DNA of 64,000 nt. Source: Gemmatimonadales bacterium (lineage in GTDB: Bacteria > Gemmatimonadota > Gemmatimonadetes > Gemmatimonadales > GWC2-71-9). The translations under genes were made by a program, and so were the position numbers. Location: assembly GCA_036555275.1 (NCBI GenBank), contig DATBLR010000107.1, positions 24,717 to 88,716 on the forward strand, read 5' to 3'. Each line of letters begins with the position of its first letter. The stretch's first letter is position 1. The notes under the pieces were generated by a model. The model was given only the letters and a program-made list of their open reading frames with translations. It did not search any database and was not told the origin of the DNA. Positions 1,565 through 40,439 of this stretch are shown here, in pieces.

Positions 1565-1962
1565 TCGGCGCCGGCGTCGTGTTCGCCGGCATCGCCATTG
1601 TCCTGCTGGCCCGCACCTTCCGGCGTGACCGGGTCGAAGGCCACGCCTTTCCCATTCCATCCCGCGACCAGCGCGTCATCGTCGAAGTGCTGAACGGCAC
1701 CGACCGGAACGGCCTGGCCCGACTGGGCGCACGCCGCCTCCGGCGTCAGGGATTCGATGTCGTCTCTTTCGGCAATGCCGAATCACCCGGCGTCGATACC
1801 ACGACCGTGCTGGTGCGCCGGGGGAGTGCCGAGCCGGCGGAACGGGTGCGGTCGGCGCTCGGCGTGGGCACTGTGGTGGCGCGGAAGGACACCCTGCGGC
1901 GGGTGGATGTGACCGTGATCCTCGGCTCCGACTTCCGGCCTGACGAGGATGGCCGGCCGTAG
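1531..1962 (+). CDS. LytR_C (LytR/CpsA/Psr C-terminal) domain protein with one N-terminal TM helix
   Basis: Distal part of ORF 1336..1962: TM segment LIGAGVVFAGIAIVLLA, then a VIVEVLNGT..GLA...L..QGFDVVSFGNA block. The upstream part of the ORF overlaps the previous gene. Start is uncertain; TTG 1531 was chosen. Confidence 0.6.
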   Translation: MELAPGTRRALIGAGVVFAGIAIVLLARTFRRDRVEGHAFPIPSRDQRVIVEVLNGTDRNGLARLGARRLRRQGFDVVSFGNAESPGVDTTTVLVRRGSAEPAERVRSALGVGTVVARKDTLRRVDVTVILGSDFRPDEDGRP

Positions 1963-1990
1963 GGGCCGCATGCATGCGGCCCCTACGGCC
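1955..1990. terminator. Perfect 36-bp palindrome centred on GCATGC between convergent genes (bidirectional terminator candidate); extra copy of the right half at 1999-2017
   Basis: ggccgtaggggccgcatg|catgcggcccctacggcc is exactly self-complementary. 1999-2017 is the exact reverse complement of 1951-1969. Confidence 0.7.
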
Positions 1991-2005
1991 GCAGGTACGC
2001 GGCCC

Positions 2006-3358
2006 CTACGGCCGGCCAGGCACCAGCCCCAGAACCAGGTCCATCACGTTGGTTCCGGTCATTCCCGTCTTGAAGAGCGCTCCTGCCGCCGCCAGCGCAT
2101 CGTAGCCATGGTGGGTCTGGAGGTCGCGTGCGGGGTCGCGCCCCGCGCGTCGGATGGCGTCCCAGGTGCCGGCCTCCGCAAACCCGCCCGCGGCGTCGGT
2201 AGGCCCGTCCCGCCCATCCGTCCCAGCCGCTAACAAGACCAGCCGCCGAGTCGCCGAGCCGTCGAGCCGTCGAGCCGCTTCGTCAAGAACTCCGGCGGCG
2301 GCAAGGGCCAGCTCCTGGGACCGCCCGCCCAGGCCGGCGTCGGGCGTGAGGGTAACAGTGGTCTCTCCGCCCCAGATCAGGACCGTATCTTTATTCACTC
2401 CGCTGGCTTGCGCGGCCGCGAGCTTTGTGGCATCATATGCCAGCAAGGTCGTGGCGAGCCGCCTGCCCACGTCGGCCGCCTCGCCGGTCAGGGCGGCGTC
2501 CAGCAGCAAGGGCTCCAGTCCCAGTTCCCGGGCCCGCGCCGCAGTGGCTTCAAGGGCCAGCCGGTTGCTGGCGATGAGAATCGTCTGAGTGCTTCGGAAG
2601 GCGGGATCGCCCGGCTTCGGTGTCTCGGGTGCGTCGCCCCGGATCACCGCCTCGAGGTGGTCGCGGAGCTCTGCTGGGATCTTCTCCCACAGGCTGTCGG
2701 TTTCGAGCATGGCTCGGATCTCGGCGGCTCTCGACGGATCTGGAATACAGGGACCTGAGCCGATTGAACCCAGGTCGTCACCGATTACGTCGGAGATTGT
2801 GAAATTTTTCACGTGCGCCGGATGGAGGGCGGCGGCGAGGCGTCCGCCGCCCCAGCGCGCGAACCGTTTGCGGATCCGGTTCATGGCAGTTATATCGAGC
2901 CCGGATCCCAGCAGGAGCCGGAATAACTCGGTGAAATCCGTCGGTCGGAGCCCAGGCAATGGGGCGCCGACGAGGCTCGTCGTGCCCCCCGAGAGGAGTA
3001 CCCACACCTCATCGTCGGGGCCCACGCGGGCTACTGCTTGGCCCACCAGCTCGGCGGCGGCGAATGAACCGGGCCCGGGTTGGGGATGGTCGCCTACCCC
3101 GACAACCAGGCGTGGGTGGGGTGAGGGCGCGGCTTCGGGCAGGACCAGCACTCCTCCTGCGGGCGCGGTTCCCCGGTCGGCCAGGACTTGAACCGCAGCC
3201 TGGGCCATCGGAAGCGAGGCCTTGCCGAGGGCGAACAGATGCACCCGACGGCTGGTGGGGTGCGCGGCGAGCGCCGCCCTCAGGGCGGGCGCCGGTGCCG
3301 CGGCATGGACCGCCGCCCAGTACAGCTCGGTGAGCAGGGTGCGCGGATCAGCCGACAT
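2006..3358 (-). CDS. Glycerate 2-kinase family protein (DUF4147 + MOFRL; TtuD/hydroxypyruvate-reductase-like annotation class)
   Basis: ORF 2006..3583 trimmed to ATG 3358 (MSADPRTLL...). GGETTV and GTDGRDGPTDAAG blocks are present. Confidence 0.85.
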   Translation of the reverse strand: MSADPRTLLTELYWAAVHAAAPAPALRAALAAHPTSRRVHLFALGKASLPMAQAAVQVLADRGTAPAGGVLVLPEAAPSPHPRLVVGVGDHPQPGPGSFAAAELVGQAVARVGPDDEVWVLLSGGTTSLVGAPLPGLRPTDFTELFRLLLGSGLDITAMNRIRKRFARWGGGRLAAALHPAHVKNFTISDVIGDDLGSIGSGPCIPDPSRAAEIRAMLETDSLWEKIPAELRDHLEAVIRGDAPETPKPGDPAFRSTQTILIASNRLALEATAARARELGLEPLLLDAALTGEAADVGRRLATTLLAYDATKLAAAQASGVNKDTVLIWGGETTVTLTPDAGLGGRSQELALAAAGVLDEAARRLDGSATRRLVLLAAGTDGRDGPTDAAGGFAEAGTWDAIRRAGRDPARDLQTHHGYDALAAAGALFKTGMTGTNVMDLVLGLVPGRP

Positions 3359-3401
3359 GGCGGGCGTGGTCAGGCAGGGTCCGGATGATGGTAGCAGGCA
3401 T

Positions 3402-3430
3402 GCGGGCGGTATGAACATACAGCCGCCCGC
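3402..3430. promoter_or_regulatory. 29-bp near-perfect palindrome in the divergent glycerate-kinase <-> sga control region (candidate operator)
   Basis: gcgggcggtatg aa catacagccgcccgc: outer 8 bp are perfect and the core is TATGAACATA. A second inverted repeat, cgagagc-ccgga-gctctcg, follows at about 3441-3465. Confidence 0.35.
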
Positions 3431-3493
3431 GAGCATTCGCGCGAGAGCCCGGAGCTCTCGCTCCGTGTTGTCTTCAGCGCAGAGGGTGATGCC

Positions 3494-4732
3494 ATGCCAG
3501 GCCGCAATTTCCTGTTCGTCCCCGGTCCCACGAATTCGCCCGACCGCATCCTCAGGGCGATGCATGTGCCCATGGAGGACCACCGGTCGTCATCGTTCCC
3601 CGGGCTCACCGGACCGATCTTCCGCGACCTGAAGCGGGTCTTCCAAAGCGAAACCGGGACGCCCTTCATCTTCCCGGGCACCGGGACCGGCGGCTGGGAG
3701 TCCGCGCTGGTTAACACCCTCTCCCCCGGCGACAAGGTGCTGTCGTTCCGCTATGGCCAGTTCAGTCACCTGTGGATCGACATGATGCAGCGGATGGGGC
3801 TCGACGTGACCGCGATCGACGTCGAATGGGGCGAAGGCGCGCCGCCGGAGACCATTCATGACATCCTGGCCAAGGACGCCAAGCATGGGTACAAGGCCGT
3901 CTGCGTAGTCCACAACGAGACCGCTACCGGGGTGACCAGCGACGTCGCGGCGGTGCGCAAGGCGATGGACGCCGCCAAACATCCCGCCTTCCTGTTCGTG
4001 GACAGCGTCTCGGGCCTCGCCAGCATCGATTTCCGGATGGATGAATGGCGAGTCGATATGGCCGTGACCGGATCCCAGAAGGGCTTCATGCTGCCGGCCG
4101 GTGCGGGCATCGTCTGCGTCAGCCCCCGGGCCCTGGAGGCCGGCAAGACGGCGAAGCTGCCGCGCTGCTACTGGAGCTTCGAGGACATGATCAAGGCGAA
4201 CGCGACGGGTTATTTCCCCTACACGCCGTCCGTGCCGATGCTGTACGGCTTGCGCGAGGCGCTCGACATGCTGTTCGAGGAGGGACTCGAGAACGTGTTC
4301 GCCCGGCACCACCGGCTGGCGGAAGGGTGCCGTCGGGCGGCCGCGGCGTGGGGCCTCACCCTGTGCGCCCGGGCGCCCAAGTGGCATTCCGATACCGTGA
4401 GCGCGATCATGGTGCCCGCGGGCGTGAATGCGGCCGACGTGATCGATGTGGCCTACCGGCGCTACAACTTCGCGTTGGGGGCCGGCCTCAACAAAGTCGC
4501 GGGTAAGTTGTTCCGGATCGGCCACCTGGGCGATCTCAACGAGATCACCCTCGCCGCGGGGTTGGCGGGGACGGAGATGGCCATGCGCGATGTCGGGATC
4601 AAGGTCGAGTTCGGCAAGGGCGTCGCCGCGGCGCAGCAGTACTGGATCGAGACCCAGACTCCGCTGCCGCCCAAGACCGTGGCGGGTCCCGCCGAGGCGG
4701 CGGTGGCGCGCAAGCCGGCGGGCGTCGCGTGA
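3494..4732 (+). CDS. sga: Serine--glyoxylate (alanine--glyoxylate) aminotransferase, class V PLP enzyme
   Basis: 412 aa. N-terminus MPGRNFLFVPGPTNSPDRIL and the SQKGFMLPAG PLP-lysine block. Gene context fits (mcl, mtkAB, hprA, ppc). Confidence 0.85.
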   Translation: MPGRNFLFVPGPTNSPDRILRAMHVPMEDHRSSSFPGLTGPIFRDLKRVFQSETGTPFIFPGTGTGGWESALVNTLSPGDKVLSFRYGQFSHLWIDMMQRMGLDVTAIDVEWGEGAPPETIHDILAKDAKHGYKAVCVVHNETATGVTSDVAAVRKAMDAAKHPAFLFVDSVSGLASIDFRMDEWRVDMAVTGSQKGFMLPAGAGIVCVSPRALEAGKTAKLPRCYWSFEDMIKANATGYFPYTPSVPMLYGLREALDMLFEEGLENVFARHHRLAEGCRRAAAAWGLTLCARAPKWHSDTVSAIMVPAGVNAADVIDVAYRRYNFALGAGLNKVAGKLFRIGHLGDLNEITLAAGLAGTEMAMRDVGIKVEFGKGVAAAQQYWIETQTPLPPKTVAGPAEAAVARKPAGVA

Positions 4733-5670
4733 GCCACACCCGCTACGAGCCGGCTCGCCCCCGGCTGCAGCGGAGCGAGCTGGCCGTACCGGGCTCCAAT
4801 CCGGCCATGTTCGAGAAGGCCCTCGCCAGCGCCGCGGACTACGTCTTCCTGGACCTGGAGGACTCGGTCGCGCCAGCGGACAAGGAACAGGCGAGGATCA
4901 ACGTCATTCGGGGGCTGAACCAGCACGACTGGCGGGGTCATGGCAAGACCATCTGCGTTCGGGTAAACGGGATCGACACCCACTACTACTACCGCGATAT
5001 GGTGGACGTGGTGGAGCAGGCCGGTGAGAAGGTGGAGGTGGTGCTGGTCCCCAAGGTCGGGGTGCCGGGAGACGTGTACCTCACTGACGCCCTGCTGACC
5101 CAGATCGAAGCCGCCAAGGGGATCACCCAGCGGATCGGCATCGACGTGCTCATCGAGACCGCGCTGGGAATGGCGAACGTGGAGGCCATCGCCCAGAGCT
5201 CGAAGCGCCTGGAGGCGATGCACTTCGGGGTGGCCGACTACGCCGCCAGCATGCGGGCGCGGACGGTCTCGATCGGCGGGCTCAACCCCGACTATCCCGG
5301 CGACCAGTGGCATGCCTCTCTCACCCGCATGATCGTGGCGTGCCGGGCCTACGGGCTCAGGCCGATCGACGGGCCGTTCGGGGACTTCAAGGATCCGGAT
5401 GCCTATCTCGCCGCGGCCCGTCGCGGTGCGGCGCTGGGCATCGAGGGGAAGTGGGCGATCCATCCCAGCCAGATCGAGCTGGCGAATCAGGTCTTCACGC
5501 CGCCGGAGGCCGAGGTGACCCGGGCCCGGCGGATCCTTGAGGCGCTGGAGCAGGCCGCGCGAGACGGAAAGGGGGCCGCCCAGCTGGATGGCAAGATGAT
5601 CGACGCCGCCAGTGCGCGCATGGCGCAGAACGTAGTGGAGATGGCGAAGGCGATCGGGGCGAAGCGGTGA
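4729..5670 (+). CDS. mcl: L-malyl-CoA/beta-methylmalyl-CoA lyase (HpcH/HpaI-CitE fold)
   Basis: 313 aa. SELAVPGSNPAMFEKA...DYVFLDLEDSVAP and the KWAIHPSQIE block. GTGA start/stop overlap with sga. Confidence 0.85.
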   Translation: MSHTRYEPARPRLQRSELAVPGSNPAMFEKALASAADYVFLDLEDSVAPADKEQARINVIRGLNQHDWRGHGKTICVRVNGIDTHYYYRDMVDVVEQAGEKVEVVLVPKVGVPGDVYLTDALLTQIEAAKGITQRIGIDVLIETALGMANVEAIAQSSKRLEAMHFGVADYAASMRARTVSIGGLNPDYPGDQWHASLTRMIVACRAYGLRPIDGPFGDFKDPDAYLAAARRGAALGIEGKWAIHPSQIELANQVFTPPEAEVTRARRILEALEQAARDGKGAAQLDGKMIDAASARMAQNVVEMAKAIGAKR

Positions 5671-5681
5671 GAGGGGCCGCC

Positions 5682-5785
5682 GGCTATCGGCTATCAGCTA
5701 TCGGCTGTCGGAGCTTGGGACGAGGTCAGGAGCCCGTCTCGGGCCCCGACGTTAGGGCCGATAGCTGATAGCCGATAGCTGACCA
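5682..5785. repeat. Array-hairpin element, GGCTATC class, in the mcl|mtkA intercistronic gap
   Basis: Left arm ggctatc ggctatc agctatc ggctgtc gg (5682-5711). Right arm gccgata gctgata gccgata gctgacc (5757-5785). The first 25 nt of the left arm are identical to the element at 26-116. Confidence 0.85.
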
Positions 5786-5817
5786 TTCGTCCCGGCATTC
5801 ATCAGCGGAGACCACCC

Positions 5818-6990
5818 GTGGACATCCACGAATACCAATCCAAAGAACTCCTCGCCAACTTCGGCGTCGCCGTCCCGCGGGGCGGGGTGGCCTACAGTGC
5901 CGAGCAGGCGGTCTACCGGGCCGCGGAAATCGGCGGCTCGCGGTGGGCCGTCAAGGCGCAGATCCACTCCGGGGCCCGGGGCAAGGCCGGCGGCATCAAG
6001 TTATGCACCACCGAGGATGAGGTGCGCAAGGCCGCCAACGAGCTGCTCGGCAAGCGCCTGGTCACCCACCAGACCGGGCCCGACGGCAAGGTCGTGCACC
6101 GGTTATATGTCGAGGCCGCAGTGCCCATCGAACGGGAGCTGTACGTCGGCTTCGTTCTGGACCGGAAGAGCGAGCGGATCATGATGGTGGCTCACCCGCA
6201 TGGCGGCATGGAGATCGAGGAGATCGCCAAGAGCGAGCCCGAGACCATCCTCCGCCAGACCATGGAGCCGGCCGTCGGCATGCAGTCGTTTCAGGCGCGC
6301 GAGGTCGCCTTCGGGCTGGGGCTGCCTGCCGCCGCGGTGAACCGGATGGTGAACACGCTGATGGGCTGCCACCGGGCGTTCCGGGAGCTGGACGCCACGA
6401 TGGTGGAGATCAACCCGCTGGTGCTGACCCGGGACGGGCAGCTGCTCGCCCTCGACGCCAAGATGGCCTTCGATGACAACGCCCTGTTCCGGCGCCCCAA
6501 TGTCACCGAGCTCCGCGACCATGCCGAAGAGGACCCCCGCGAGGCACAGGCGTCCGAGCACGGGCTCAACTATGTGGCGCTGGATGGGGAGATCGGCTGC
6601 ATCATCAACGGCGCCGGGTTGGCCATGGCGACCATGGACATGATCAAGCACGCCGGCGGCTCCCCGGCCAACTTCCTCGACGTGGGCGGGGGGGCATCGC
6701 CGGAACGGGTCGCCATGGCGTTCAAGCTGGTGCTGCAGGATCGCAAAGTCGGCGCCATGCTGGTCAACATCTTCGCGGGTATCAACCGCTGCGACTGGGT
6801 GGCCAAGGGCGTGGTGCAGGCTGTGAAGGAAGTCGGGGTGAACGTGCCCCTGGTGGTTAGGCTCGCCGGCACCAATGTGGAGGAAGGCCGCAAGATCATT
6901 CAGGAGTCGGGCCTGCCCATCATCTCGGCGGAGTCGCTTGAGGACGCCGCGGACAAGGTGGTGGCGGCGTGGAAGAAGGCCAAGAAATAG
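5818..6990 (+). CDS. mtkA: Malate--CoA ligase (malate thiokinase) beta subunit; succinyl-CoA ligase beta is the alternative
   Basis: 390 aa with an ATP-grasp N-terminus, [12 protein letters not shown]...[19 protein letters not shown]. Assigned to Mtk rather than SucC from context only. Confidence 0.75.
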
Positions 6991-7065
6991 GGGGAACGGG
7001 GAACCGGGAACGGGGAACGGGCACTGCCTCCTCCCCGTTCTCCGTTCCCCGTTCTCCCATTCCCC
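6991..7065. repeat. Array-hairpin element, GGGGAAC class, in the mtkA|mtkB intercistronic gap
   Basis: ggggaac ggggaac cgggaac ggggaac ggg - 11-nt loop - ccccgtt ctccgtt ccccgtt ctcccat tcccc. Begins on the nucleotide after the mtkA stop. Confidence 0.88.
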
Positions 7066-7090
7066 AAATCGCGCTGGAGATGGAATCGTC

Positions 7091-8005
7091 ATGGCCATCA
7101 TGATCAACGAGCTGACCCGCATCATCGTCCAGGGCATCACGGGCGATAAGGCGACCTTCCACTCCCAGAAGATGATCGAGTACGGGGCGAAGGTGGTCGG
7201 CGGAGTCACACCGGGGAAGGGTGGGCAAAACCATATCGGGCTGCCGGTGTTCAACACCGTGAAGGAGGCGGTGGACGCCGTCTATCCCGACGCGAGCATC
7301 ATCTTCGTGCCGGCGGCCTTCTGCGCCGACGCGATCATGGAAGCGGCGGACGCGGGAATCAAGCTGGTCTGCTGCATCACCGACGGGATCCCAGCGCAGG
7401 ACATGATGATGGTGAAGCGCTACCTGCGGCGGTACCCGAAGGAGAAGCGCACCACCCTGGTCGGGCCCAATTGCGCCGGTCTCATCAGCCCGGGCAGATC
7501 GATGCTGGGCATCATGCCCGGGCACATCTACATGCCGGGACGGGTCGGGCTGGTGACCCGTTCCGGCACCCTGGGGTACGAGGCGGCGAGCCAGATGAAG
7601 GAGCTGGGCATCGGGGTCTCCACGAGCGTCGGGATCGGTGGCGACCCGATCAACGGGTCGAGCTTCCTGGATGTGCTGGCTCTGTTCGAGCGTGACCCGG
7701 AGACCGAGGCGGTCATGATGATCGGCGAGATCGGCGGGCCGCAGGAGGCGGAGGCCGCCATGTGGGTGAAGCAGAACATGACCAAGCCGGTCATCGGGTA
7801 CGTTGCGGGGCTTACCGCCCCCAAGGGCCGCCGCATGGGGCACGCGGGGGCCATCATCTCGGCGTTCGGAGACACAGCCGCCGAGAAGGCGGAGATCATG
7901 CGCTCGCTGGGGCTGCACGTCGCCCCCAGCCCGGCGGAGTTGGGCCGGGCAGTGGCCGAGGCGCTGGCCAAGAAGCCGGCCAAGAAGCGGATGGCGAGCC
8001 GATGA
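7091..8005 (+). CDS. mtkB: Malate--CoA ligase alpha subunit (SucD-family)
   Basis: ORF 6875..8005 trimmed to ATG 7091 (MAIMINELTRIIVQGITGDKATFH), preceded by GGAGATGGA. SRSGTLGYE and GHAGAII phosphohistidine loop are present. Confidence 0.78.
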   Translation: MAIMINELTRIIVQGITGDKATFHSQKMIEYGAKVVGGVTPGKGGQNHIGLPVFNTVKEAVDAVYPDASIIFVPAAFCADAIMEAADAGIKLVCCITDGIPAQDMMMVKRYLRRYPKEKRTTLVGPNCAGLISPGRSMLGIMPGHIYMPGRVGLVTRSGTLGYEAASQMKELGIGVSTSVGIGGDPINGSSFLDVLALFERDPETEAVMMIGEIGGPQEAEAAMWVKQNMTKPVIGYVAGLTAPKGRRMGHAGAIISAFGDTAAEKAEIMRSLGLHVAPSPAELGRAVAEALAKKPAKKRMASR

Positions 8006-8976
8006 CCGCCCGCCCGCGGGTCATCATCACCCGGAAGATCCCGGCGGCATGTGAAGCGGAGGCGGAGCGGCGGTTTGACGCCGTGGTCAACCGGGACGAT
8101 GTGCCCCTGAGTGCCGACCAGCTGCGGGAGGCGCTGCGCAACGCCGACGGGCTCCTGCCGACGGTCACCGATAAGGTCACCGCCGAGGTGCTGGCGGTCG
8201 CGCCGCGGCGGGCGAAGATCATCGCCAATTTCGGGGTCGGGTTCAACAACATCGACATCGCGGCCGCCGGGGCGCAGGGCCTCACCGTCACCAACACGCC
8301 CGACGTCCTCACCGATGACACGGCGGATATCGCCATGACACTGCTGCTCATGGTGGCACGCCGCGCCGGGGAGGGCGAACGTCAGGTCCGCGCCAGGCAG
8401 TGGACCGGCTGGCGGCCGACGCACATGCTCGGGGCCAAGGTGAGCGGGAAGACACTGGGCCTGATCGGCTTCGGCCGGATCGCGAAGGCGGTGGCCCGGC
8501 GGGCGCACCACGGCTTCGGCATGCGGATCCTCTATACCGACCCGTTCCCGCCAAAGCCGGAGGAGGCGAAGGCGGTGAATGCGGAGGCGCGGGCCTCGGT
8601 GGAGGACGTACTGCGGGAGGCGGATTTCATATCGCTCCATTGCCCCGCGACGCCCGAGACCCGGCACCTGATCAACCGGGAGCGGCTGGCGGTCATGCGG
8701 CCGCACGCCTTCCTGATCAACACCGCGCGCGGCGACGTGGTGGAGGAGGCGGCGCTGGTGGCCGCGCTCAAGGCCGGCGGCATCGCGGGGGCGGGGCTCG
8801 ACGTGTTCGAGAAGGAGCCCACTGTGGCCCCCGAGCTGCTCGCCATGGAGAACGTGGTCCTGCTTCCCCACCTGGGCAGCGCCACCCAGGAAACCCGGGT
8901 TGCGATGGGTATGCGGGCCATCGAGAACCTCTCGCTCTTCTTTGCCGGGCAGCCGGTCCGCGACAAGGTCGTGTGA
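8002..8976 (+). CDS. hprA: Hydroxypyruvate/glyoxylate reductase (D-isomer-specific 2-hydroxyacid dehydrogenase)
   Basis: ORF 7762..8976 trimmed to ATG 8002 (ATGA overlap with mtkB). Motifs GLIGFGRIAKAV (NAD fold), INTARGDVV and PHLGSAT. Confidence 0.85.
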   Translation: MTARPRVIITRKIPAACEAEAERRFDAVVNRDDVPLSADQLREALRNADGLLPTVTDKVTAEVLAVAPRRAKIIANFGVGFNNIDIAAAGAQGLTVTNTPDVLTDDTADIAMTLLLMVARRAGEGERQVRARQWTGWRPTHMLGAKVSGKTLGLIGFGRIAKAVARRAHHGFGMRILYTDPFPPKPEEAKAVNAEARASVEDVLREADFISLHCPATPETRHLINRERLAVMRPHAFLINTARGDVVEEAALVAALKAGGIAGAGLDVFEKEPTVAPELLAMENVVLLPHLGSATQETRVAMGMRAIENLSLFFAGQPVRDKVV

Positions 8977-11750
8977 CCCAGGACTATCTCGCTCCGTTTA
9001 CTGCCGGCGCGCTCCCTTCCTCTCCTGATCCGCTCGCAGCCAGCGCCGCCCAATACGCGACCGAGGTAGCGGAGCACCTCTTCTCGCTCCTGGTTGGCGT
9101 CGTCAAGGTCCGACACCCCTACCTCGAGTCGGCCCTCGCGGGCGGGCCGATGGATCCCGGCTGGACCACCGACCAGCTGGAGGCGTGCCTCCGCGCCCAG
9201 GGAATCTGGTTTCAGCTCCTCTCTATCGCCGAGCAGAACGCCGGCATGCGGCGCCGTCGCCAGACTGAGACCGAGCGAGGGGCCGAGCACGTCAAGGGCA
9301 CCCTGAGTCAGGTGCTGCACGACCTGGTCCGCGACGGGATCGCCGAGCCCGACGGCGTGCGGCGCCTGCTTCACGACCTGCGCGTCCGGCCGACCATTAC
9401 GGCCCATCCCACCGAGGCCAAGCGGGTGACGGTGCTGGAAAAGCAGCGCCGCATCTACCGCAAACTCGTGGACCTGGAGTCGCCCCGCTGGACTCCGCGG
9501 GAGCGGGCCCAGCTCACCGAAGCGCTCCGCACCGATATCGAGCTCCTGTGGATGACGGGCGAGCTTCGGCTCGAGAAGCCCACGGTGCCCCAGGAGGTCT
9601 ACTGGGGGCTGCACTTCTTCAGCGAAACCCTGTTCGAGGCCGTGACCGAGACCGCCGAGAAGCTCGAGCGGCTGCTGGCACAGATCTGGCCCGAGGAACG
9701 ATTCGAGATTCCGCCATTCTTCCAGTTCGGTTCCTGGATCGGAGGCGATCGGGACGGGAATCCGTTCGTGACCAACGAGGTCACCCGACGGACGCTGTGC
9801 GAGAACCGGATGGCGAGCCTGCATCGCTATCGCCAGCGACTGGTCGAGCTGCTCAAGACGCTGAGCATCACCGAGCGGGCCGTGACGGTGACGCCCGCCT
9901 TCCGGGCCGCCCTGGACCGCGCCCTGGGAGAGAGCGGCGATGGCCCCGGGATCATCTCCCGCAACCCCGGCGAGATTTTTCGCCAGTATCTCGCCTGCAT
10001 GATGCACAAGCTCGAGGGCGCGATTCGGCATGCCGAGCGGGGAGGCAAGGCCCTGGCGGGCGACGGCTACGGCTCGGCCGACGAGCTGCTGACCGATCTG
10101 CGCATCCTCGAGAATGCGCTCCGGGACGGAGGCAGCGCCACGCTCGCGAGCCAGCTCTTGCGGCCGGTGCGGCGCGAGGTCGAGACCTTTCGCTTCAGTA
10201 CCGTCCGGCTCGATCTCCGGGAAAATACGGCCCGCCTGACCGAGGCGCTGGTGGCACTCTGGCGCATCACGACGGGCCAGGGCGGCGACCCGCCGGCGCT
10301 GGCTTCGGATGAGTGGAAGGGCTGGCTCCTGGGGGAGCTGGCCCGGCCCCGCCGGGGCGACCGGCCGCCGGAGGCGTTCCCGCCGGGGGTGCGGGAGACC
10401 ATCGGCATGTTTCGGCTCGTGGGGGAAATGCGGGCCGGGCTGGATCGGGAGGCCTTCGGCGCCTTCATCCTCAGCATGACCCGCGAGGTTGCCGATGTGC
10501 TCGGTGTTTACCTCCTGGCCAAGGTGGCGGGCCTCTTCGCCGACGAGTCGGGGGTGGAGAGCTGCACTCTCCCCATTGTCCCGCTGTTCGAGACCATTGA
10601 CGACCTGCACCGCGCACCCGGGATGATGCGGGAGCTCCTTAGCATCCCGGTGGTGCGGCGGACGGTGCGGGCTCTCGGCGGAGCCCAGGAAGTGATGATC
10701 GGTTATTCGGACAGCAACAAGGATGGCGGCTACTTGTCCTCCAACTGGGAGCTGTCCAAAGCCCAGACCCGACTCACCCGGCTGGGCGAGGAGCTTGGGG
10801 TCCCGATCAGCTTCTTCCACGGGCGAGGCGGGTCGGTAAGCCGGGGAGGCGCGCCGCTGGGCCGATCTATCGCGGCCCAGCCTGCCGGATCCATCCGGGG
10901 CCGGATGCGGGTGACAGAGCAGGGGGAGGTTGTCTCGCTCAAATACGCCAACCGGGGCACCGCGCAGTACCAGGTGGAGCTCCTTGCCGCGAGCGTGATC
11001 GAGCATTCCTTCCGCTCCGAGCAGGAGGCGGCCCTCGCCCCGACCAGCGAATTCGACGAGGCCATGGAGGCTCTCTCCGGCGCGGCCCAGGCGGCCTACC
11101 GCCGCTTCGTCGAGCGCCCCGATCTGATCGGCTACTTCACTGCCGCGAGCCCGCTGGAGGAGCTCACCCTGCTGAACATCGGCTCCCGGCCGGCACGCCG
11201 CACTGGCGCCCGGACCCTGGCCGATCTGCGGGCGATTCCCTGGGTGTTCGCCTGGTCGCAGAACCGGCACTTCATCACCGGCTGGTACGGGATGGGAAGC
11301 GGGCTCCAGACCTTCATGCAGATCCGGGGCGAGCGGGGGGAGAAGCTGCTCAAACGAATGCTGGAAGGCTCGCGACTGTTCCAGCTGCTGCTCGATGAGG
11401 TGGAGAAGACCCTGGCCTATGTCGATCTCGACATCGCCCGCATGTATGCGGAGCTGGTCCCCGAGGCAACCTGCCGGGACGCGATCTTCGGCTTGGTGGA
11501 GGAGGAGCACCATCGCACCGTCGAGGCCGTCCTGCGAGTGAGCGGGGCCTCGGAGCTGGCCGAGCGCTTTCCCCGGTTCCGCCGCCGCCTGGCGCGTCGC
11601 ATGGCGACCATCAATCAGGTGAGCCGACAGCAGGTGGAGCTGCTGCGCCGCTTCCGAGCGGCTGCGAGTGAGTCGGAGCGGCAGCGCTACCTCTCCGCAT
11701 TGCTCCTCTCGATCAATTGCATCTCGCTCGGGTTCGGGGCGACGGGGTGA
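8973..11750 (+). CDS. ppc: Phosphoenolpyruvate carboxylase
   Basis: ORF 8400..11750 trimmed to GTG 8973 (GTGTGA overlap with hprA), giving about 925 aa. Motifs TAHPTEAKR and GYSDSNKDGG. Confidence 0.9.
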   Translation: MTQDYLAPFTAGALPSSPDPLAASAAQYATEVAEHLFSLLVGVVKVRHPYLESALAGGPMDPGWTTDQLEACLRAQGIWFQLLSIAEQNAGMRRRRQTETERGAEHVKGTLSQVLHDLVRDGIAEPDGVRRLLHDLRVRPTITAHPTEAKRVTVLEKQRRIYRKLVDLESPRWTPRERAQLTEALRTDIELLWMTGELRLEKPTVPQEVYWGLHFFSETLFEAVTETAEKLERLLAQIWPEERFEIPPFFQFGSWIGGDRDGNPFVTNEVTRRTLCENRMASLHRYRQRLVELLKTLSITERAVTVTPAFRAALDRALGESGDGPGIISRNPGEIFRQYLACMMHKLEGAIRHAERGGKALAGDGYGSADELLTDLRILENALRDGGSATLASQLLRPVRREVETFRFSTVRLDLRENTARLTEALVALWRITTGQGGDPPALASDEWKGWLLGELARPRRGDRPPEAFPPGVRETIGMFRLVGEMRAGLDREAFGAFILSMTREVADVLGVYLLAKVAGLFADESGVESCTLPIVPLFETIDDLHRAPGMMRELLSIPVVRRTVRALGGAQEVMIGYSDSNKDGGYLSSNWELSKAQTRLTRLGEELGVPISFFHGRGGSVSRGGAPLGRSIAAQPAGSIRGRMRVTEQGEVVSLKYANRGTAQYQVELLAASVIEHSFRSEQEAALAPTSEFDEAMEALSGAAQAAYRRFVERPDLIGYFTAASPLEELTLLNIGSRPARRTGARTLADLRAIPWVFAWSQNRHFITGWYGMGSGLQTFMQIRGERGEKLLKRMLEGSRLFQLLLDEVEKTLAYVDLDIARMYAELVPEATCRDAIFGLVEEEHHRTVEAVLRVSGASELAERFPRFRRRLARRMATINQVSRQQVELLRRFRAAASESERQRYLSALLLSINCISLGFGATG

Positions 11751-11752
11751 CG

Positions 11753-11851
11753 GGACGAGGCGAGGAGGCGAAAAGGCCAGCAGGCTAGGTCGACGGTTGC
11801 CGGTGTCCCCCTGCCAGTTGGCCTCCTGGCCTCCTCGCCTGCTGGCCTTCC
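11753..11851. repeat. Purine-rich / pyrimidine-rich complementary segments between convergent ppc and rlmN
   Basis: gaggcgaggagg and ggccagcagg (11753-11785) have complements cctcctcgcc and cctgctggcc (11820-11851). The complements are in the same, not mirrored, order. The right part overlaps the rlmN 3' end. Confidence 0.5.
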
Positions 11852-12891
11852 ACCTCTACCCGCAGCTGCCCGCACGCGGCACTGATGTCGAGCCCGCGAC
11901 TGCGCCGGACGACCGCCTCGACCCCCCGCTGACCGAGCCGAGCGGCGAAGGCGCGGAGCCGGCTCGGCGGGCTGGGCGCGAGATCGGGAGCGCCGCCGGG
12001 GTGCAGCGGCAGCAGGTTCACCAGCGCCCCCGTCTTCCGGGCGAGAGCGGCCAGCTCGTCGGCGTCTCGTTCGCTGTCGTTCAGTCCGGCGATCAGTACG
12101 TACTCGAAGGTGATCCGCTTGCGGAAGGCGGCGGCCGCCGCCAAGACCTCCTTCAGAGGATACTTCTTCTCGACCGGCATGAGCGGCCGACGGCGGGCCG
12201 CGCTCGCGGCGTGGAGGGAGATCGCCAGCCGGAACTGTTCCGGCCGTTTGGCGAGCTGCTTCATGCCGGGAATGATCCCCACGGTTGAGACGGTAATGTG
12301 CCGCGCGCCGATGCCGAATCCCTCGGCACTATTCAGGACGGTGAGGGCGACGTCCACCGCGGGCCAGTTGAGCAGCGGCTCGCCCATGCCCATGAACACG
12401 ACATTGGTCGGCTTGTCAGCTGGGTCGCGAAGCACCAGCTCGCGGACCTGCCCCAGGATCTCTGAGGGCCGAAGGTTGCGTCGGAAGCCCATCTGGCCCG
12501 TGGCACAGAACCGGCAGCCGAGGGCGCAGCCCGCCTGGGAGGAGATGCACAACGTGCGGCGGGCGCCGGAAGGGATGAGGACCGATTCGACAAGCTCTCC
12601 GTCATCGAGACGCCACAGCTGTTTTCGGGTGCCGTCCTGCGAGCGCTGTTCGGTAGCCAGGGTGAGACGGGGGAGGGGCCAGTCCCGCTGCAGGAGCACC
12701 CGCAATTCCGCCGGAAGCTCGGTGGCCTCGGCCCACTGCCCGATCGGTCGCTGCCACAGCCGAGGCAGCAGCTGCCGCAGTCGAAATCGGGGCAGTCCGA
12801 GATTCCCCACCCAGCTTTCGAGGCGGGCCGACGCCTCCCGCGGCGGAAGGTCGAGCAGGGTGGCGGTTACGACGCCAGGACCGGCGGCCAT
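11785..12891 (-). CDS. rlmN: 23S rRNA/tRNA adenine-C2 methyltransferase, radical SAM (RlmN/Cfr family)
   Basis: ORF 11785..13230 trimmed to ATG 12891 (MAAGPGVV...). GCALGCRFCATG CxxxCxxC cluster. The C-terminal tail runs into the repeat at 11820-11851. Confidence 0.85.
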   Translation of the reverse strand: MAAGPGVVTATLLDLPPREASARLESWVGNLGLPRFRLRQLLPRLWQRPIGQWAEATELPAELRVLLQRDWPLPRLTLATEQRSQDGTRKQLWRLDDGELVESVLIPSGARRTLCISSQAGCALGCRFCATGQMGFRRNLRPSEILGQVRELVLRDPADKPTNVVFMGMGEPLLNWPAVDVALTVLNSAEGFGIGARHITVSTVGIIPGMKQLAKRPEQFRLAISLHAASAARRRPLMPVEKKYPLKEVLAAAAAFRKRITFEYVLIAGLNDSERDADELAALARKTGALVNLLPLHPGGAPDLAPSPPSRLRAFAARLGQRGVEAVVRRSRGLDISAACGQLRVEVEGQQARRPGGQLAGGHRQPST

Positions 12892-32110: not shown

Positions 32111-33262
32111 ATGAATCCCGACATCACCAAACTGCTGGCGAAGCTGACCCGGCTCCGGACCGACGATCACCGCATCGTCACCTGTTATCTCAAGATCGAG
32201 CCGCGCGATCGGGCCCGGGGCAAATATCTGATCAAGCTCAAGAACCGGATCCGCGAGGTCGAACACGCGCTGGACCGGCTCGACTTCCCCCGGCAGGTGC
32301 GCGAGGAGGTGAGCGCGGATCTGCGCCGGATTCACGATCAGCTGCGGGAGCCGGCCCGACTGCCCGGAACCCAGGGACTGGCCATTTTCGCCTGCGGGCC
32401 GCTGAAGCTGTTCGAGCTGGTGGGACTCCCCAGTGTGCACCGCTCCCGTCTGGCCGTGGAACGCACCCCGCTGGTGCGGGAGCTGGCCTCGGTGGAGGAC
32501 GAGATCGGCACCCTGCTCACCGTGGTACTGGATCGGACGGCCGGGCGGATCTTCGAGGTGACCGCTTTCGGCGCCGCGGAGCTGGATGGCATCCGGTCCA
32601 ACAGCACCCGCGGCGGCCGCTTCCACAGCGATCGGGCGGACGCTCCTGGCAAGGGCGAGCACACCTACCACAACCGAATTCGCGAAGAGAAGCAACGGCA
32701 CTTCGCCACCATCGCCGAACGGCTGTTCGAGCTGCATCGGCGTCGGCCGGTGCACGGGGTCGTGCTGGCGGGTCCGGGCCGGGAAGCGGGCGCCGTCGCG
32801 GCTTTCCTGCACCCCTACCTCGCGGACCGTTTGATGGGGGTCGTGAGTTTGAACCCGAAGGAGGCCCGGGCCGCCGTCGTGCACACGGCGACGCTCGCCA
32901 CCCGGGCCGAGTTCGAGCGCGAGTCGGAGCGCTCCATTGTCCTGGGCCTGGAGGGTGCGCTCGGAGAAGGTTGGGCGGTGGATGGGGTGGAGGACACCCT
33001 GCGGGCGCTGAGTCGGGGACAGGTGCGGACCCTGCTGGTGGACGGTGATGCCCAGGCTTCCGGATTTCATTCGGCGACGTCCGGCCGAATCGCCGCCCGT
33101 GAGGCCGAGTTGCGCGCCGAGGGTGAGGTCTATCCGGTGCTCGATCTGATAGACGAGGCCATCGAGGAGGCGCTGCGCCAGCGGGTCGAAGTCGAGGTCC
33201 TCTACGACACCGCCGCCCGCGGTGTGATCCACACGCTGGCGGGCCTGCTGCGCTTCCGGTGA
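32111..33262 (+). CDS. eRF1/Pelota-fold protein (bacterial baeRF-type release-factor-like), GGQ loop replaced by GGR
   Basis: 383 aa. STRGGRFHS...HNRIREEKQRHFATIAERLF..VHGVVLAGPG and VDGVEDTLRALSRGQVRTLLV parallel eukaryotic eRF1 [31 protein letters not shown] and [20 protein letters not shown]. Confidence 0.75.
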   Translation: MNPDITKLLAKLTRLRTDDHRIVTCYLKIEPRDRARGKYLIKLKNRIREVEHALDRLDFPRQVREEVSADLRRIHDQLREPARLPGTQGLAIFACGPLKLFELVGLPSVHRSRLAVERTPLVRELASVEDEIGTLLTVVLDRTAGRIFEVTAFGAAELDGIRSNSTRGGRFHSDRADAPGKGEHTYHNRIREEKQRHFATIAERLFELHRRRPVHGVVLAGPGREAGAVAAFLHPYLADRLMGVVSLNPKEARAAVVHTATLATRAEFERESERSIVLGLEGALGEGWAVDGVEDTLRALSRGQVRTLLVDGDAQASGFHSATSGRIAAREAELRAEGEVYPVLDLIDEAIEEALRQRVEVEVLYDTAARGVIHTLAGLLRFR

Positions 33263-34386: not shown

Positions 34387-36015
34387 GTGACTACGACGAC
34401 TCCTCCCCGGAACTCGCGGCTCAGGAGCCTGACCGAGGAATATCTCGCCCTCGCGGCAAAGCTCCGGGAAGGTGGTGGGGCCAAGCGGGTGGCGAGGATG
34501 CACCAGAAAGGGCAGCTCTCCCCACGCGAGCGGGTTCACGGGCTGCTCGATCCGGGGACCCCCTGGCTCGAGATAGGCCTGCTGGTCGCGTACGACCAAT
34601 ACGACGGCCAGGCGCCCGGCGCGGGGGTGGTTACGGGGCTCGGGGTGGTCGAGGGACACGAAGTCGTGATCGTCGCCAACGATGCCACGGTCAAGGCGGG
34701 CTCCTGGTGGCCCGAGACGATCCGGAAGATCCTGCGGGCACAGGAGATCGCGATGCGCCAGCGGATCCCGATCATCTACCTGGTGGATTCGGCCGGGGTA
34801 AACCTCCCCTATCAGGGCGGCGTGTTCCCGGGACAATACGGGGCCGCCCGAATCTTCTACTACAACTCGCTGATGCGGCGCTACCTGAACGTGCCCCAGA
34901 TCAGCGCGGTCATGGGAAGCTGCATCGCCGGCGGCGCGTACCTCCCGGCGCTGTCCGATGTGATCTTCATGGTCGAAGGCACCAGCTTCATGGGCCTCGG
35001 CGGGCCCAACCTGGTCAAGGGCGCCACTGGCCAGATGGTGGACCCCGATACGCTCGGCGGCGCCGCCATGCACACCTCCGTCTCCGCCGTCGCGCACTAT
35101 CGCGCCGCGACCGATGCGGAATGCCTCAAGATGATCCGCGGCTACGTGGCCCGGTTGCCCAGCCTCCGAGCCGTCGAGCCGCCGAGCCCTCGTGTCTCCG
35201 AGCCGCCCAGCCGGCCCGCCACCGATCTCTACGACCTTCTTCCCACTGACCACCGCATGTCCTACGACATGCACGCACTGCTTGGGTGCTTTCTCGATGG
35301 CGGGAGGCTGGATGAATTCCAGCCGGACATCGCGCGGGAACTGCTCTGCGGTCACGCCTGGATCGAGGGGAGACCGGTCGCGATCCTGGCCAACGCCCGA
35401 ACGGTGATCAAGGGGAAGTCAGGGCAGATGCCGCGGATCGGCGGAATCGTCTACACGGAAAGCGCCGAGAAGGCGGCCTACTTTATCGAAACGGCGAGTC
35501 GGCAGCGGATCCCGCTGCTCTTCGTGCAGGACGTCAGCGGTTTCATGGTCGGCAGCGAGGCGGAGCAGTCAGGCATCATCCGGGCCGGTGCGCGCTTCGT
35601 CGAGGCGATGGCGACCGCAGTCGTCCCCAAACTGGTGTTGACGGTCAACCATGCGTCGGGTGCCGGGTATTACGCCATGGCAGGGCAGGGATTCGACCCC
35701 GACTTCATTCTCAGCTGGCCCACGGGCCGTATGGCTGTCATGGAAGGAGAGTCGGCCGTGGAGGCGGTCCACGGGGTGGAGTTGGCACGGTCCCGCGCGG
35801 AAAAGCGGGCGCCCGCAAAGGAAGTACAGGCCTCCGCCGCCAGCATGCGAGCCGATTACGAGCACCAGCTCGACGCGAAGTATGCGGCAGCGCGCGGCTT
35901 CGTGGACGCCATCGTGACGGTCGAGGAGACCCGCGAGGTACTTGCCTTCCTGCTGCGAACGACGTCGGGCTTCGGCGGCCCGCATATCGGACCCTTCGTG
36001 CTGCCGCCGCTATGA
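34387..36015 (+). CDS. Acyl-CoA carboxylase carboxyltransferase (beta) subunit, methylcrotonyl-/geranyl-CoA carboxylase-like
   Basis: 542 aa. Blocks LSPRERVHGLLDPGTPWLEI, IVANDATVKAGSWWP and AVMGSCIAGGAYLPA. No biotin-carboxylase partner is present in the window. Confidence 0.85.
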   Translation: MTTTTPPRNSRLRSLTEEYLALAAKLREGGGAKRVARMHQKGQLSPRERVHGLLDPGTPWLEIGLLVAYDQYDGQAPGAGVVTGLGVVEGHEVVIVANDATVKAGSWWPETIRKILRAQEIAMRQRIPIIYLVDSAGVNLPYQGGVFPGQYGAARIFYYNSLMRRYLNVPQISAVMGSCIAGGAYLPALSDVIFMVEGTSFMGLGGPNLVKGATGQMVDPDTLGGAAMHTSVSAVAHYRAATDAECLKMIRGYVARLPSLRAVEPPSPRVSEPPSRPATDLYDLLPTDHRMSYDMHALLGCFLDGGRLDEFQPDIARELLCGHAWIEGRPVAILANARTVIKGKSGQMPRIGGIVYTESAEKAAYFIETASRQRIPLLFVQDVSGFMVGSEAEQSGIIRAGARFVEAMATAVVPKLVLTVNHASGAGYYAMAGQGFDPDFILSWPTGRMAVMEGESAVEAVHGVELARSRAEKRAPAKEVQASAASMRADYEHQLDAKYAAARGFVDAIVTVEETREVLAFLLRTTSGFGGPHIGPFVLPPL

Positions 36016-36089
36016 CAGGAGCCGCGGGCTGGGCCGGGTCCCCGGAACCTGCTCGTCTGGGTGGGTGGGCGCTGCCAGGGAGTTCCAGA

Positions 36090-38909: not shown

Positions 38910-40282
38910 GCGGCCGCATCGTCCGGGTCGCGGCTGGCCAGGGCTTCTGGGGTGACTGGCTCGAGGCGCCGGTCCGTCAGGTACGGGGCGGGCCGATCGA
39001 CTATCTGATGATGGACTATCTCGCGGAAGTGACCATGTCCATCATGCAGAAACAGAAGTCGCGTGATCCACGCCTCGGCTATGCCCGCGACTTCGTCCCC
39101 TTGATGGAGCGGATTCTGCCGGACCTCGCGGCCCTCGGGGTCAGGGTCACCAGCAACGCCGGCGGCGTGAACCCCCGGTCGTGCGCCGAAGCCGTCCGGG
39201 ACGCCGCGCGCAAGCTCGGGCTGAGCGATCGGGTGCGCATAGCCCTGGTCACCGGGGATGACATCCTGCCGCGCCTCGATGCCCTCCTGCAGTCCGGTCA
39301 CCAGCTGAAGGACCTCGACACCGGCCGGCCGCTCAGCGACATCCGCGATGCAGTGCTCTCCGCGAACGCCTATCTGGGGATGGCCCCGATCGTTGAGGCG
39401 CTGCGCCGTGGCGCGCACGTCGTGGTCACTGGACGGGTGACCGACACGGGGCTTACTCTGGGACCTTTGTTCCACGAGTTCGGGTGGGCCACCGACGATT
39501 GGGACAAGGTTGCCGCCGGCACCGTCGCCGGACACATCATCGAATGTGGCGCTCAGTCCTCCGGCGGCAATCTGCTGAAGGATTGGCGGTCGGTGAAGGG
39601 GCTGGAGAACCCCGGCTTTCCCATCGTCGAGGCAACGGCTGATGGCAGCTTCGTGGTCACCAAGCACCCGGGGACGGGGGGAACCGTCAGCGTCGCGAGC
39701 GTCACTGAACAGCTGGTGTACGAAATGGGCGACCCACACTCCTATATCACTCCCGACGGCATTGCCGACTTCACCACGATCCAGCTGCGCCAGGTGGGCA
39801 GGGACCGGGTCAGGGTGAGCGGAATCCGGGGACGCCCCCGCACTGACCAGCTCAAGGTTTCGATCGCGTATTTCTACGGGTACAAGGCCATCGGAACGCT
39901 GGTATACAGCTGGCCCGAAGCCTACGACAAGGCCAGGGCGGCCGACCGGATCCTCCGGGCCCGGTTGCAGGACCTGGGCCTCGCATTCGAGCAGATCCTG
40001 ACCGAGTTTGTGGGTGTTGACGCCACCCACGGCCCCCTCGCTGGACCGCCGCATCCCGACATCCCGGAGGTGCAGCTTCGGGTCGGTGTGCGGTCGAAGG
40101 ACAAGGCGGCGGTGGAGCGGTTCACCCGGGAGATCGCGCCGCTGGTGCTGACTGGCCCGCCGAGCGTCACCGGTTTTGCCGGGGGCCGCCCGGAGGTGCA
40201 GGAGGTCATCGCGTACTGGCCCGCGCTGATCGATCGGACGGCCGTCGAGCCGTTCGTCAAGGTGGAGGTCCTCGACCCATGA
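38906..40282 (+). CDS. AtuA-family protein (DUF1446, acyclic-terpene-utilisation protein A-like)
   Basis: ORF 38441..40282 trimmed to ATG 38906 (ATGA overlap with the S8 gene). Blocks [11 protein letters not shown]...[17 protein letters not shown] and [14 protein letters not shown]. Confidence 0.75.
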
Positions 40283-40337
40283 GGCGTCACCGACGGCCTC
40301 AGCGTCCCTGGTCGGGGCCTGCCGTAGCCCAGCATGA

Positions 40338-40401
40338 GGCCCGGTGGGTGGGGCGAGCGGGCGCTGCGCTATGGCACGCCCCGAGCCCCACCCATCGGGC
40401 C
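40338..40401 (+). other. 17-bp stem / 30-nt loop hairpin in the AtuA | partner intercistronic gap
   Basis: ggcccggtgggtggggc (40338-40354) pairs with gccccacccatcgggcc (40385-40401), with one G-A mismatch. Confidence 0.5.
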
Positions 40402-40439
40402 GCTGCCGACCCACGAGACAACAACGGGACAGCAACCGA

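Follow-up and report, generated by a model that had tools for sequence, protein, structure and literature searches.

In the present work, a window of 64,000 nt on contig DATBLR010000107.1 was analyzed, and all positions given without a contig number refer to it. The contig belongs to the assembly GCA_036555275.1 of an uncultured Gemmatimonadales bacterium (3.71 Mb in 126 contigs, 97.5% complete). Seven adjacent genes at 2006-11750 form a compact cluster of serine-cycle type. In detail, the list of open reading frames (ORFs) and the family scans place a glycerate kinase gene (gck) on the minus strand and, divergent to it on the plus strand, the genes sga-mcl-mtkA-mtkB-hprA-ppc (table 1). All seven had been recognized in the initial annotation, and the ORFs and family matches confirmed each of them in its place.

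Table 1. Genes and intergenic features of the cluster, with positions in the 64,000-nt window
Feature	Position	Strand	Basis
gck, glycerate kinase, MOFRL/DUF4147 class (putative glycerate 2-kinase type)	2006-3358	-	Pfam DUF4147 and MOFRL
gck-sga divergent intergenic region, 135 bp, presumed promoter region	3359-3493		Sequence reading
sga, serine-glyoxylate aminotransferase (class-V aminotransferase)	3494-4732	+	PDB 6pk1 match
mcl, L-malyl-CoA/beta-methylmalyl-CoA lyase (HpcH/HpaI CitE-like)	4729-5670	+	PDB 5ugr and 4l9y matches
mcl/mtkA spacer, 147 bp, opposed tandem-heptamer hairpin with GGCTATC-type arms	5671-5817		Folding
mtkA, malate-CoA ligase (malate thiokinase) beta subunit	5818-6990	+	NF010647, tree
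mtkA/mtkB spacer, 100 bp, GGGGAAC-type opposed-repeat hairpin	6991-7090		Folding
mtkB, predicted malate-CoA ligase alpha subunit	7091-8005	+	Identity to Methylorubrum MtkB, SucD-family models
hprA, hydroxypyruvate/glyoxylate reductase (GRHPR type, D-2-hydroxyacid dehydrogenase)	8002-8976	+	Family and PDB matches
ppc, phosphoenolpyruvate (PEP) carboxylase	8973-11750	+	Pfam PEPcase

The call of malate thiokinase against succinyl-CoA synthetase (SucCD) had been made on context only, and it now has the support of a model score above cut-off, of a tree placement and of a separate sucCD locus. MtkA gave 711.5 bits on the NCBI malate-CoA ligase beta model NF010647 (cut-off 604) and 555 bits on that for SucC, whereas the genome's own SucC (C79:136143-137270) gave 381.2 bits on the former and 481 bits on the latter. 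This second gene is part of a sucC-sucD-ndk locus on contig C79 (136-138 kb), and the ligase of the cluster is thus distinct from the SucCD of the cell. The identity of MtkA is 42% to the genome's SucC versus 67-70% to the MtkA of the named Methylobacterium/Methylorubrum loci. Similarly, MtkB shares 54% identity with the genome's SucD versus 78% with the MtkB of Methylorubrum rhodesianum (72-78% across the same named loci). The profile matches of MtkB are with SucD-family models only (NF004230, 440.9 bits), and no MtkB-specific NCBIfam model matched. Its predicted role as the alpha subunit of malate-CoA ligase rests on the comparison of these identities and on adjacency to mtkA.

The phylogenetic placement of MtkA was examined in a quick IQ-TREE analysis of 80 rows, which included the window, 78 of 80 related loci and, as the single outgroup, the SucC of the genome; in the two loci left out, the best high-scoring segment pair spans less than 90% of the query. 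The window MtkA falls in a starred clade of 47 rows with a value of 100, which contains all 14 Gemmatimonadota rows together with Methylobacterium, Methylocystis, Methylocella, Methylocapsa, Methyloceanibacter and Methylibium. It thus groups with the MtkA of methylotrophs and apart from SucC, whose branch has a length of 6.4, and the deeper order of the tree is unreliable.

The other enzymes of the cluster were compared with solved structures and family models. The full-length best matches of Mcl are solved malyl-CoA lyases, i.e., PDB 5ugr (malyl-CoA lyase/beta-methylmalyl-CoA lyase; 426.9 bits over residues 1-312) and 4l9y (321.6 bits), and citrate lyase beta and CitE chains reach at most 115 bits. 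Hence, the ligase genes are set apart from bona fide SucCD and the lyase from CitE-like enzymes of other specificity, and the reading of the cluster as a serine-cycle core, proposed in the initial annotation, stands on both of these points. The best solved relative of Sga is the serine-glyoxylate aminotransferase 6pk1 (486 bits), and its identity to the Sga of the Methylorubrum, Methylocapsa and Aminobacter clusters is 59-68%. HprA matches archaeal glyoxylate reductases (263-274 bits) and the D-glycerate dehydrogenase 1gdh (237.9 bits) in the PDB. Ppc is full-length with 788.7 bits on Pfam PEPcase. Gck carries the DUF4147 (186.6 bits) and MOFRL (104 bits) domains. By this architecture it is putatively of the glycerate 2-kinase type, although the choice between 2- and 3-phosphoglycerate as its product cannot be read from the sequence. 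Homologues of Gck with 35-39% identity adjoin sga in Methylocella/Methylocapsa-type clusters.

The top NCBIfam match of Sga is to BhcA, the aminotransferase of the beta-hydroxyaspartate cycle, and this candidate was rejected. The score on NF045640 is 593.7 bits, below the cut-off of 650, and no search for bhcBCD was made. The Sga proteins of Methylorubrum rhodesianum, Methylocapsa aurea and Aminobacter aganoensis gave 550, 592 and 594 bits, respectively, on the same model. Since Sga from named methylotroph clusters scores likewise, the match is a family-level cross-match.

The layout of the cluster was compared among 80 loci fetched with MtkA, by tblastn of the seven window proteins. The nearest relatives are found in metagenome-assembled genomes (MAGs) of Gemmatimonadales/Gemmatimonadaceae with 92-93% MtkA identity. 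Two layouts exist: the Methylobacterium/Methylocystis type, sga-hprA ... mtkA-mtkB-ppc-mcl, and the type of the window, sga-mcl-mtkA-mtkB-hprA-ppc. The latter is kept in 14 out of 14 Gemmatimonadota loci as far as the contigs reach, 11 of them holding all six genes. The divergent gck before sga is present in nine of these 14 and was seen in Gemmatimonadota loci only.

Direct reading of the junctions revealed three 4-base start/stop overlaps, i.e., GTGA in sga/mcl, ATGA in mtkB/hprA and GTGA in hprA/ppc, and the last two recur in most Gemmatimonadota loci. The count of four overlaps given initially has to be corrected, because the extra one is only apparent and stems from the use of longest-ORF starts (6875 or 3583). 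For gck, for instance, the probable start is the ATG at 3358 and not the longest-ORF start at 3583. The hairpin of the mcl/mtkA spacer folds with -89 kcal/mol (z -8.2), a value equaled by none of 200 shuffles, and that of the mtkA/mtkB spacer with -60 kcal/mol (z -6.2). Among 12 Gemmatimonadota loci the length of the former spacer is 20-136 bp, versus 147 bp in the window. For the mtkA/mtkB junction, 13 such loci have values between -10 and 53 bp versus 100 bp here, and therefore its insert is specific to the window's lineage. A third hairpin of opposed tandem units (-40 kcal/mol) is located at 1960-2010, just upstream of the gck stop region. The GC content of the cluster (0.66-0.70) equals that of the remaining window. 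A sigma-70 consensus scan of 1900-12000 gave no promoter-like sites, and terminator-like sites in the same interval did not exceed shuffled expectation (five versus 3.4 expected).

The insertion site of the cluster is conserved. In seven Gemmatimonadota loci, as in the window, it lies between panC-orf983-orf1336 (LytR_C) on the one side and rlmN-aspS-phoH on the other. In three out of four MtkA-negative genomes of the same family (G001, G004 and G046), orf1336 abuts rlmN, and the cluster of approximately 9.8 kb is therefore a presence/absence block at the panC/rlmN site. At the same site, the fourth genome (G038) holds a divergent gck/hprA pair only, with 44% and 62% identity to the respective window proteins (L118, G038:C11:177000-190000, positions 5745-8249). 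The pair may be what remains of a full cluster, or may represent the state from which the seven genes were assembled.

The window itself has no genes of one-carbon (C1) oxidation or of the tetrahydrofolate (H4F) and tetrahydromethanopterin (H4MPT) routes, as had been noted initially, and none appeared among the 58 + 15 window ORFs scanned for families. They were found in the rest of the genome, where an XoxF-type dehydrogenase, Fae, FtfL, Fch-domain loci and GlyA are encoded. In detail, a pyrroloquinoline quinone (PQQ) dehydrogenase on contig C3 (C3:95608-97449) gave 648.5 bits on the methanol/ethanol family model TIGR03075 (cut-off 480). Among solved structures it is closest to the lanthanide-dependent XoxF enzymes 6oc5 (710 bits) and 4mae (675 bits), with ethanol dehydrogenases at 336 bits or less, and a MoxJ-like gene adjoins it. 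The following region (C3:98-127 kb) contains H4MPT cofactor biosynthesis genes (beta-RFAP synthase, pabAB, DHPS-like and MptN), Mch, two Fhc/Fwd ABCD sets, Fae and an Mpt_N dehydrogenase of the MtdA/B family. FtfL (855 bits), two FTCD_C/Fch loci and GlyA are located on other contigs.

Some further features of these modules were observed. The formylmethanofuran dehydrogenase/formyltransferase genes of C3:108-121 kb occur twice in tandem (B-A-D-C), one set with an extra FwdD-like gene, and the B subunit of the second set scores 308 bits, below the cut-off of 328. Two more PQQ dehydrogenase paralogues (C42:1381-2898 and C24:6496-7917) remain below the methanol/ethanol-family cut-off with 437 and 343 bits, respectively. 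The pmoA model (PF02461) had no match in the genome, but it also matched none of 14 control genomes and is thus uninformative.

The distribution of these genes was surveyed in 401 Gemmatimonadota genomes, this one included, with cross-tallies made by hand. Unpublished records in the survey are G057 (positive for MtkA, Fae and the isocitrate lyase homologue described below), G181 (canonical isocitrate lyase), and G156 and G097 (both MtkA-negative), without which each count shifts by at most one. MtkA is above cut-off in 69 genomes and cut off by a contig end in five more, and all 74 belong to two families of the window's own order. Fae is above cut-off in 83 genomes, 13 of which are without MtkA. 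Conversely, it is present in 66 of the 69 MtkA-positive genomes and in four of the five with MtkA at a contig end. The almost constant nesting of MtkA in Fae-bearing genomes fits what would be expected for C1 assimilation, as a pattern and not as a statistical test, because related genomes are not independent.

Sequences of the cluster are also present in environmental libraries. Of the window's sampled words, at least half occur in each of 15 DNA runs (0.96-0.99), and 7-42% in five metatranscriptome runs from soil. When the contigs of four RNA runs from soil, each of a different study, were aligned to the window, they matched at 97-100%, and every one of the seven genes was reached by at least one contig. 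For instance, a contig of 931 nt covers 4747-5677 with zero differences, and another of 739 nt covers 7877-8615 across the mtkB/hprA junction. In these four runs ppc at approximately 9450-9900 and other bins are uncovered, gaps which prove nothing.

Taken together, the cluster most probably represents the assimilatory core of the serine cycle in an uncultured, facultative or obligate methanol- or C1-using Gemmatimonadales bacterium of soil or wetland, a reading to which a probability of about 0.78 is assigned. The physiological direction had been left open in the initial annotation. The genome context now largely favors C1 assimilation, because XoxF, the H4MPT route, FtfL, Fch, an MtdA/B-family dehydrogenase and GlyA are all encoded.

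In the proposed cycle, the lanthanide-type XoxF would oxidize methanol to formaldehyde, which Fae and the H4MPT enzymes would convert to formate. FtfL, the Fch-type cyclohydrolase and the MtdA/B-family dehydrogenase would carry formate to methylene-H4F, and GlyA would combine the latter with glycine to serine. From there the products of the cluster would take over. Sga would convert serine and glyoxylate to hydroxypyruvate and glycine, HprA would reduce hydroxypyruvate to glycerate, and Gck would phosphorylate glycerate to 2-phosphoglycerate, which would then lead to PEP. Ppc would carboxylate PEP with CO2 to oxaloacetate and thence malate would be formed, MtkAB would activate malate with ATP and CoA to malyl-CoA, and Mcl would split malyl-CoA into acetyl-CoA and glyoxylate.

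Several observations weigh against this reading. As a whole it rests on homology. The analysis establishes the identities of the genes at this level, the structure of the operon, the gene content of the genome, the co-distribution among genomes and the occurrence of the sequences in RNA libraries, whereas the specificities of the enzymes, the direction of flux, C1-dependent growth and the function of the isocitrate lyase homologue are inferred. Some profile matches remain below their cut-offs: HprA gave 319.5 bits on the glyoxylate reductase model NF009714 (cut-off 455), which is a family-level match, Gck gave 158.9 and 126 bits on the archaeal glycerate 2-kinase NCBIfam models (158.9 versus 550), and Ppc, with 763.7 bits on NF000584, is just below 815. 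For Sga, Mcl and MtkB, no match to a dedicated NCBIfam model was obtained. Three MtkA-positive genomes (G139, G347 and G111) are without Fae, in G045 the only Fae is a 118-bit paralogue, and the co-distribution of MtkA and Fae is largely a clade effect. The RNA-library contigs are a weak sign of expression, since they prove neither transcription, strand nor level, and the flanking panC region is also partly covered. Finally, no cultured methylotroph of the phylum was found in the literature searched.

Cleavage of malyl-CoA returns glyoxylate to the serine cycle, and net growth needs acetyl-CoA assimilation. The ethylmalonyl-CoA pathway, the solution of Methylobacterium for glyoxylate regeneration, is unlikely here, because no ccr was found in this genome (best match 111.7 bits versus a cut-off of 378.55) or in any of the 73 other MtkA-bearing Gemmatimonadota genomes. 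Malate synthase is present. A canonical isocitrate lyase (ICL) was not found in the genome, whose best candidate is a homologue of 378 aa (C80:105545-106678; L015:1483-2619, minus strand). This protein gave 153 bits with solved ICLs and at most 59 bits with methylisocitrate lyases, and is thus closer to the former. In the alignment to solved ICLs it keeps SGWQ, MYPD, EAGFGG, GVHxE(N/D)Q, CGH, ARTD, IWxE and NxSPS. It is named isocitrate lyase by the automatic annotation of the JGI pipeline and ICL/PEP mutase family protein by NCBI.

Some features of the homologue count against such a function. It remains below both ICL cut-offs (190.5 versus 562 and 181.4 versus 275.9 bits), it has RTCGH where solved ICLs have KKCGH, and approximately 45 residues after ARTD are missing. 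Its gene neighbors in two near-complete relatives (L122 and L123), i.e., hflX and a UDP-sugar dehydrogenase/oxidoreductase set, are uninformative.

The distribution of the two ICL forms is mutually exclusive. Among the 401 genomes, 52 have the short homologue, 90 the canonical ICL and none both. As for the 69 MtkA-positive genomes, 45 carry the homologue, 19 the canonical form and five neither. These counts agree with a clade in which the short form took the place of the canonical ICL and, overall, with an ICL+ serine cycle. Net conversion of acetyl-CoA to glyoxylate and C4 compounds would most likely proceed by the glyoxylate shunt of this ICL+ variant, and not by the ethylmalonyl-CoA pathway; the short divergent homologue and malate synthase probably close the cycle.

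A wider scenario can be drawn tentatively, at somewhat less than even odds. In one Gemmatimonadaceae clade (genera coded g1, g4, g7, g20, g23, g26 and g38), the 378-aa ICL-family enzyme may have displaced the canonical ICL and may close an ICL+ serine cycle in methylotrophs that are abundant in soil, uncultured and dependent on lanthanides. The operon may have arrived as the block of approximately 9.8 kb at the fixed panC/rlmN site, perhaps built onto a pre-existing gck/hprA pair.

Alternatively, the serine cycle may run with glyoxylate and C4 compounds replenished without the short homologue, either by an undescribed route or through co-assimilation of C1 units with multicarbon substrates, in which case no closure would be needed. 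The sub-cut-off scores and the altered active-site loop speak for this alternative, as do the five MtkA-positive genomes with neither ICL form and the missing ccr. Nevertheless, it seems doubtful, since the strict exclusivity of the two forms is what would be expected of a functional replacement, the stretches common to solved ICLs are conserved, malate synthase is present and the automatic JGI annotation already names the protein isocitrate lyase.

A further explanation is that the cluster serves as a two-carbon (C2) module for glyoxylate or glycolate, independent of growth on C1 compounds. Sga, HprA and Gck would then channel glyoxylate-derived serine or hydroxypyruvate to PEP, and MtkAB and Mcl would interconvert malate with acetyl-CoA and glyoxylate, as is presumed for the same cassette in non-methylotrophs. 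The order sga-mcl-mtkAB(-hprA) also occurs in loci of Mesorhizobium, Rhizobium, Ensifer and Sinorhizobium, genera not known to be methylotrophs. The cassette can therefore serve other purposes, a fact which weighs against the serine-cycle reading. Moreover, the three MtkA-positive genomes without Fae and the lone gck/hprA pair of G038, which indicates that part of the set can stand alone, agree with a C2 role. On the contrary, Fae accompanies MtkA in nearly all positive genomes, and this genome has XoxF, the full H4MPT route, FtfL and Fch. The presence of ppc in the operon fits a CO2-fixing cycle from C3 to C4 compounds and not a simple disposal of glyoxylate, and a separate malate synthase already handles glyoxylate with acetyl-CoA. 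A purely C2 role is thus improbable.

That the ligase is a second succinyl-CoA synthetase and the lyase a CitE-type enzyme of other specificity, with the cluster being no serine-cycle unit, agrees with the SucD-only matches of MtkB and with the sub-cut-off CitE, RipC and haloarchaeal-mcl NCBIfam matches of Mcl, but it is very improbable and largely rejected by the sequence tests, given the curated-model score of MtkA against that of its SucC paralogue, the housekeeping sucC-sucD-ndk locus, the MtkA tree and the 427 bits of Mcl to a solved malyl-CoA lyase.

The serine-cycle core and the acyl-CoA genes of the window appear to be separate matters. The thiolase, MeaB, mutase, carboxyltransferase, acyl-CoA dehydrogenase and hydratase genes listed initially were all recovered by the family scan. 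Their suggested role in feeding glyoxylate regeneration was rejected: no ccr was found, and they lie 18-40 kb off behind housekeeping genes (rlmN, aspS, phoH, Mg transporters, a TonB receptor and a two-component system). The genes rather resemble a Liu/Atu-type set (carboxyltransferase, AtuA-family protein, hydratase and acyl-CoA dehydrogenase) and a split methylmalonyl-type B12 mutase with a baeRF-type gene inside. Because ccr is missing, nothing ties these genes to the cluster, and they look like a set for the catabolism of branched-chain or terpenoid acyl-CoA and of propionyl-CoA.

Two arrangements in this part of the window were also observed. At 34387-41560, the carboxyltransferase, an S8 subtilase (965 aa), the AtuA-family protein and an enoyl-CoA hydratase are in a row, a Liu/Atu-like set interrupted by a protease gene. 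At 32111-33262, a baeRF-family (eRF1-like) gene is located between the mutase large-subunit gene and an HAD hydrolase gene (Pfam baeRF_family10 and baeRF_family2, 36-38 bits).

The serine cycle is textbook knowledge, and soil Gemmatimonadetes genomes that encode methylotrophy with a serine pathway have been known since 2016 (PMC5103831), so the present find is largely expected. In passages of that study (Butterfield et al. 2016), soil Gemmatimonadetes genomes are described with XoxF, a full H4MPT pathway, an H4F-to-serine route and a malate-mediated serine pathway, with cofactor-biosynthesis genes adjoining methanol dehydrogenase. In the same passages, XoxF is the most abundant protein of the proteome, and ICL is attributed to Rokubacteria. 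Passages of two further papers report XoxF3 systems in Gemmatimonadetes with "the entire serine pathway" in most XoxF-bearing genomes (Voutsinos et al. 2024, PMC10875860), and labeling of Gemmatimonadetes by 13C-methanol RNA stable isotope probing (PMC9258066). No literature linking a Gemmatimonad with malate thiokinase was found. The additions made here are modest: the arrangement of the operon, the insertion site that is empty in some genomes, and the mutual exclusion of ICL and its short form.

Soils are rich in Gemmatimonadota, and plants release methanol as one of their major volatiles. With the assimilation operon resolved, it becomes more credible that these uncultured bacteria use methanol as a source of biomass and do not merely oxidize it. 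The genes of the cluster can be used for marker design, expression studies and isolation attempts with lanthanides plus methanol. The presence/absence at a fixed site and the replacement of ICL by an ICL-like form across the phylum are small additions of evolutionary and biochemical interest.

With respect to published genomes, the C3 island and the cluster of this genome correspond to the XoxF, H4MPT, H4F and serine-pathway content reported for Gemmatimonadetes in the passages of Butterfield et al. 2016 (PMC5103831). These passages contain no operon gene order, Mtk/SucCD distinction, insertion site or glyoxylate regeneration of Gemmatimonadetes.

The serine-cycle clusters of Methylobacterium/Methylorubrum type have the same enzyme set as the window, and the window MtkA belongs to the same starred clade. 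Identities are 67-70% for MtkA, 72-78% for MtkB, 59-63% for Ppc, 62-64% for Mcl and 61-68% for Sga. They differ in order, since mcl of the window is upstream of mtkA and hprA is placed between mtkB and ppc. The window HprA is of a different lineage, with 30-36% identity to that of the Methylobacterium type. Furthermore, the cluster of the window is without mtdA and fch, its host is a member of the Gemmatimonadota and no ccr was found.

Outside the Gemmatimonadota, the identical six-gene order occurs in eight loci of uncultured Gammaproteobacteria MAGs (L034, L051, L053, L056, L058, L085, L100 and L105). In the cassette of Aminobacter/Mesorhizobium and MAGs, the order of the window is kept through hprA (L070, L077, L101, L103 and L104). 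The HprA proteins of the Aminobacter/Mesorhizobium/Gammaproteobacteria cassette are 57-68% identical to that of the window and thus of the same type, whereas their MtkA rows are outside the window's clade. In the cassettes of L070 and L104, gck is placed after hprA with the same orientation, in contrast to the divergent gck of the Gemmatimonadota.

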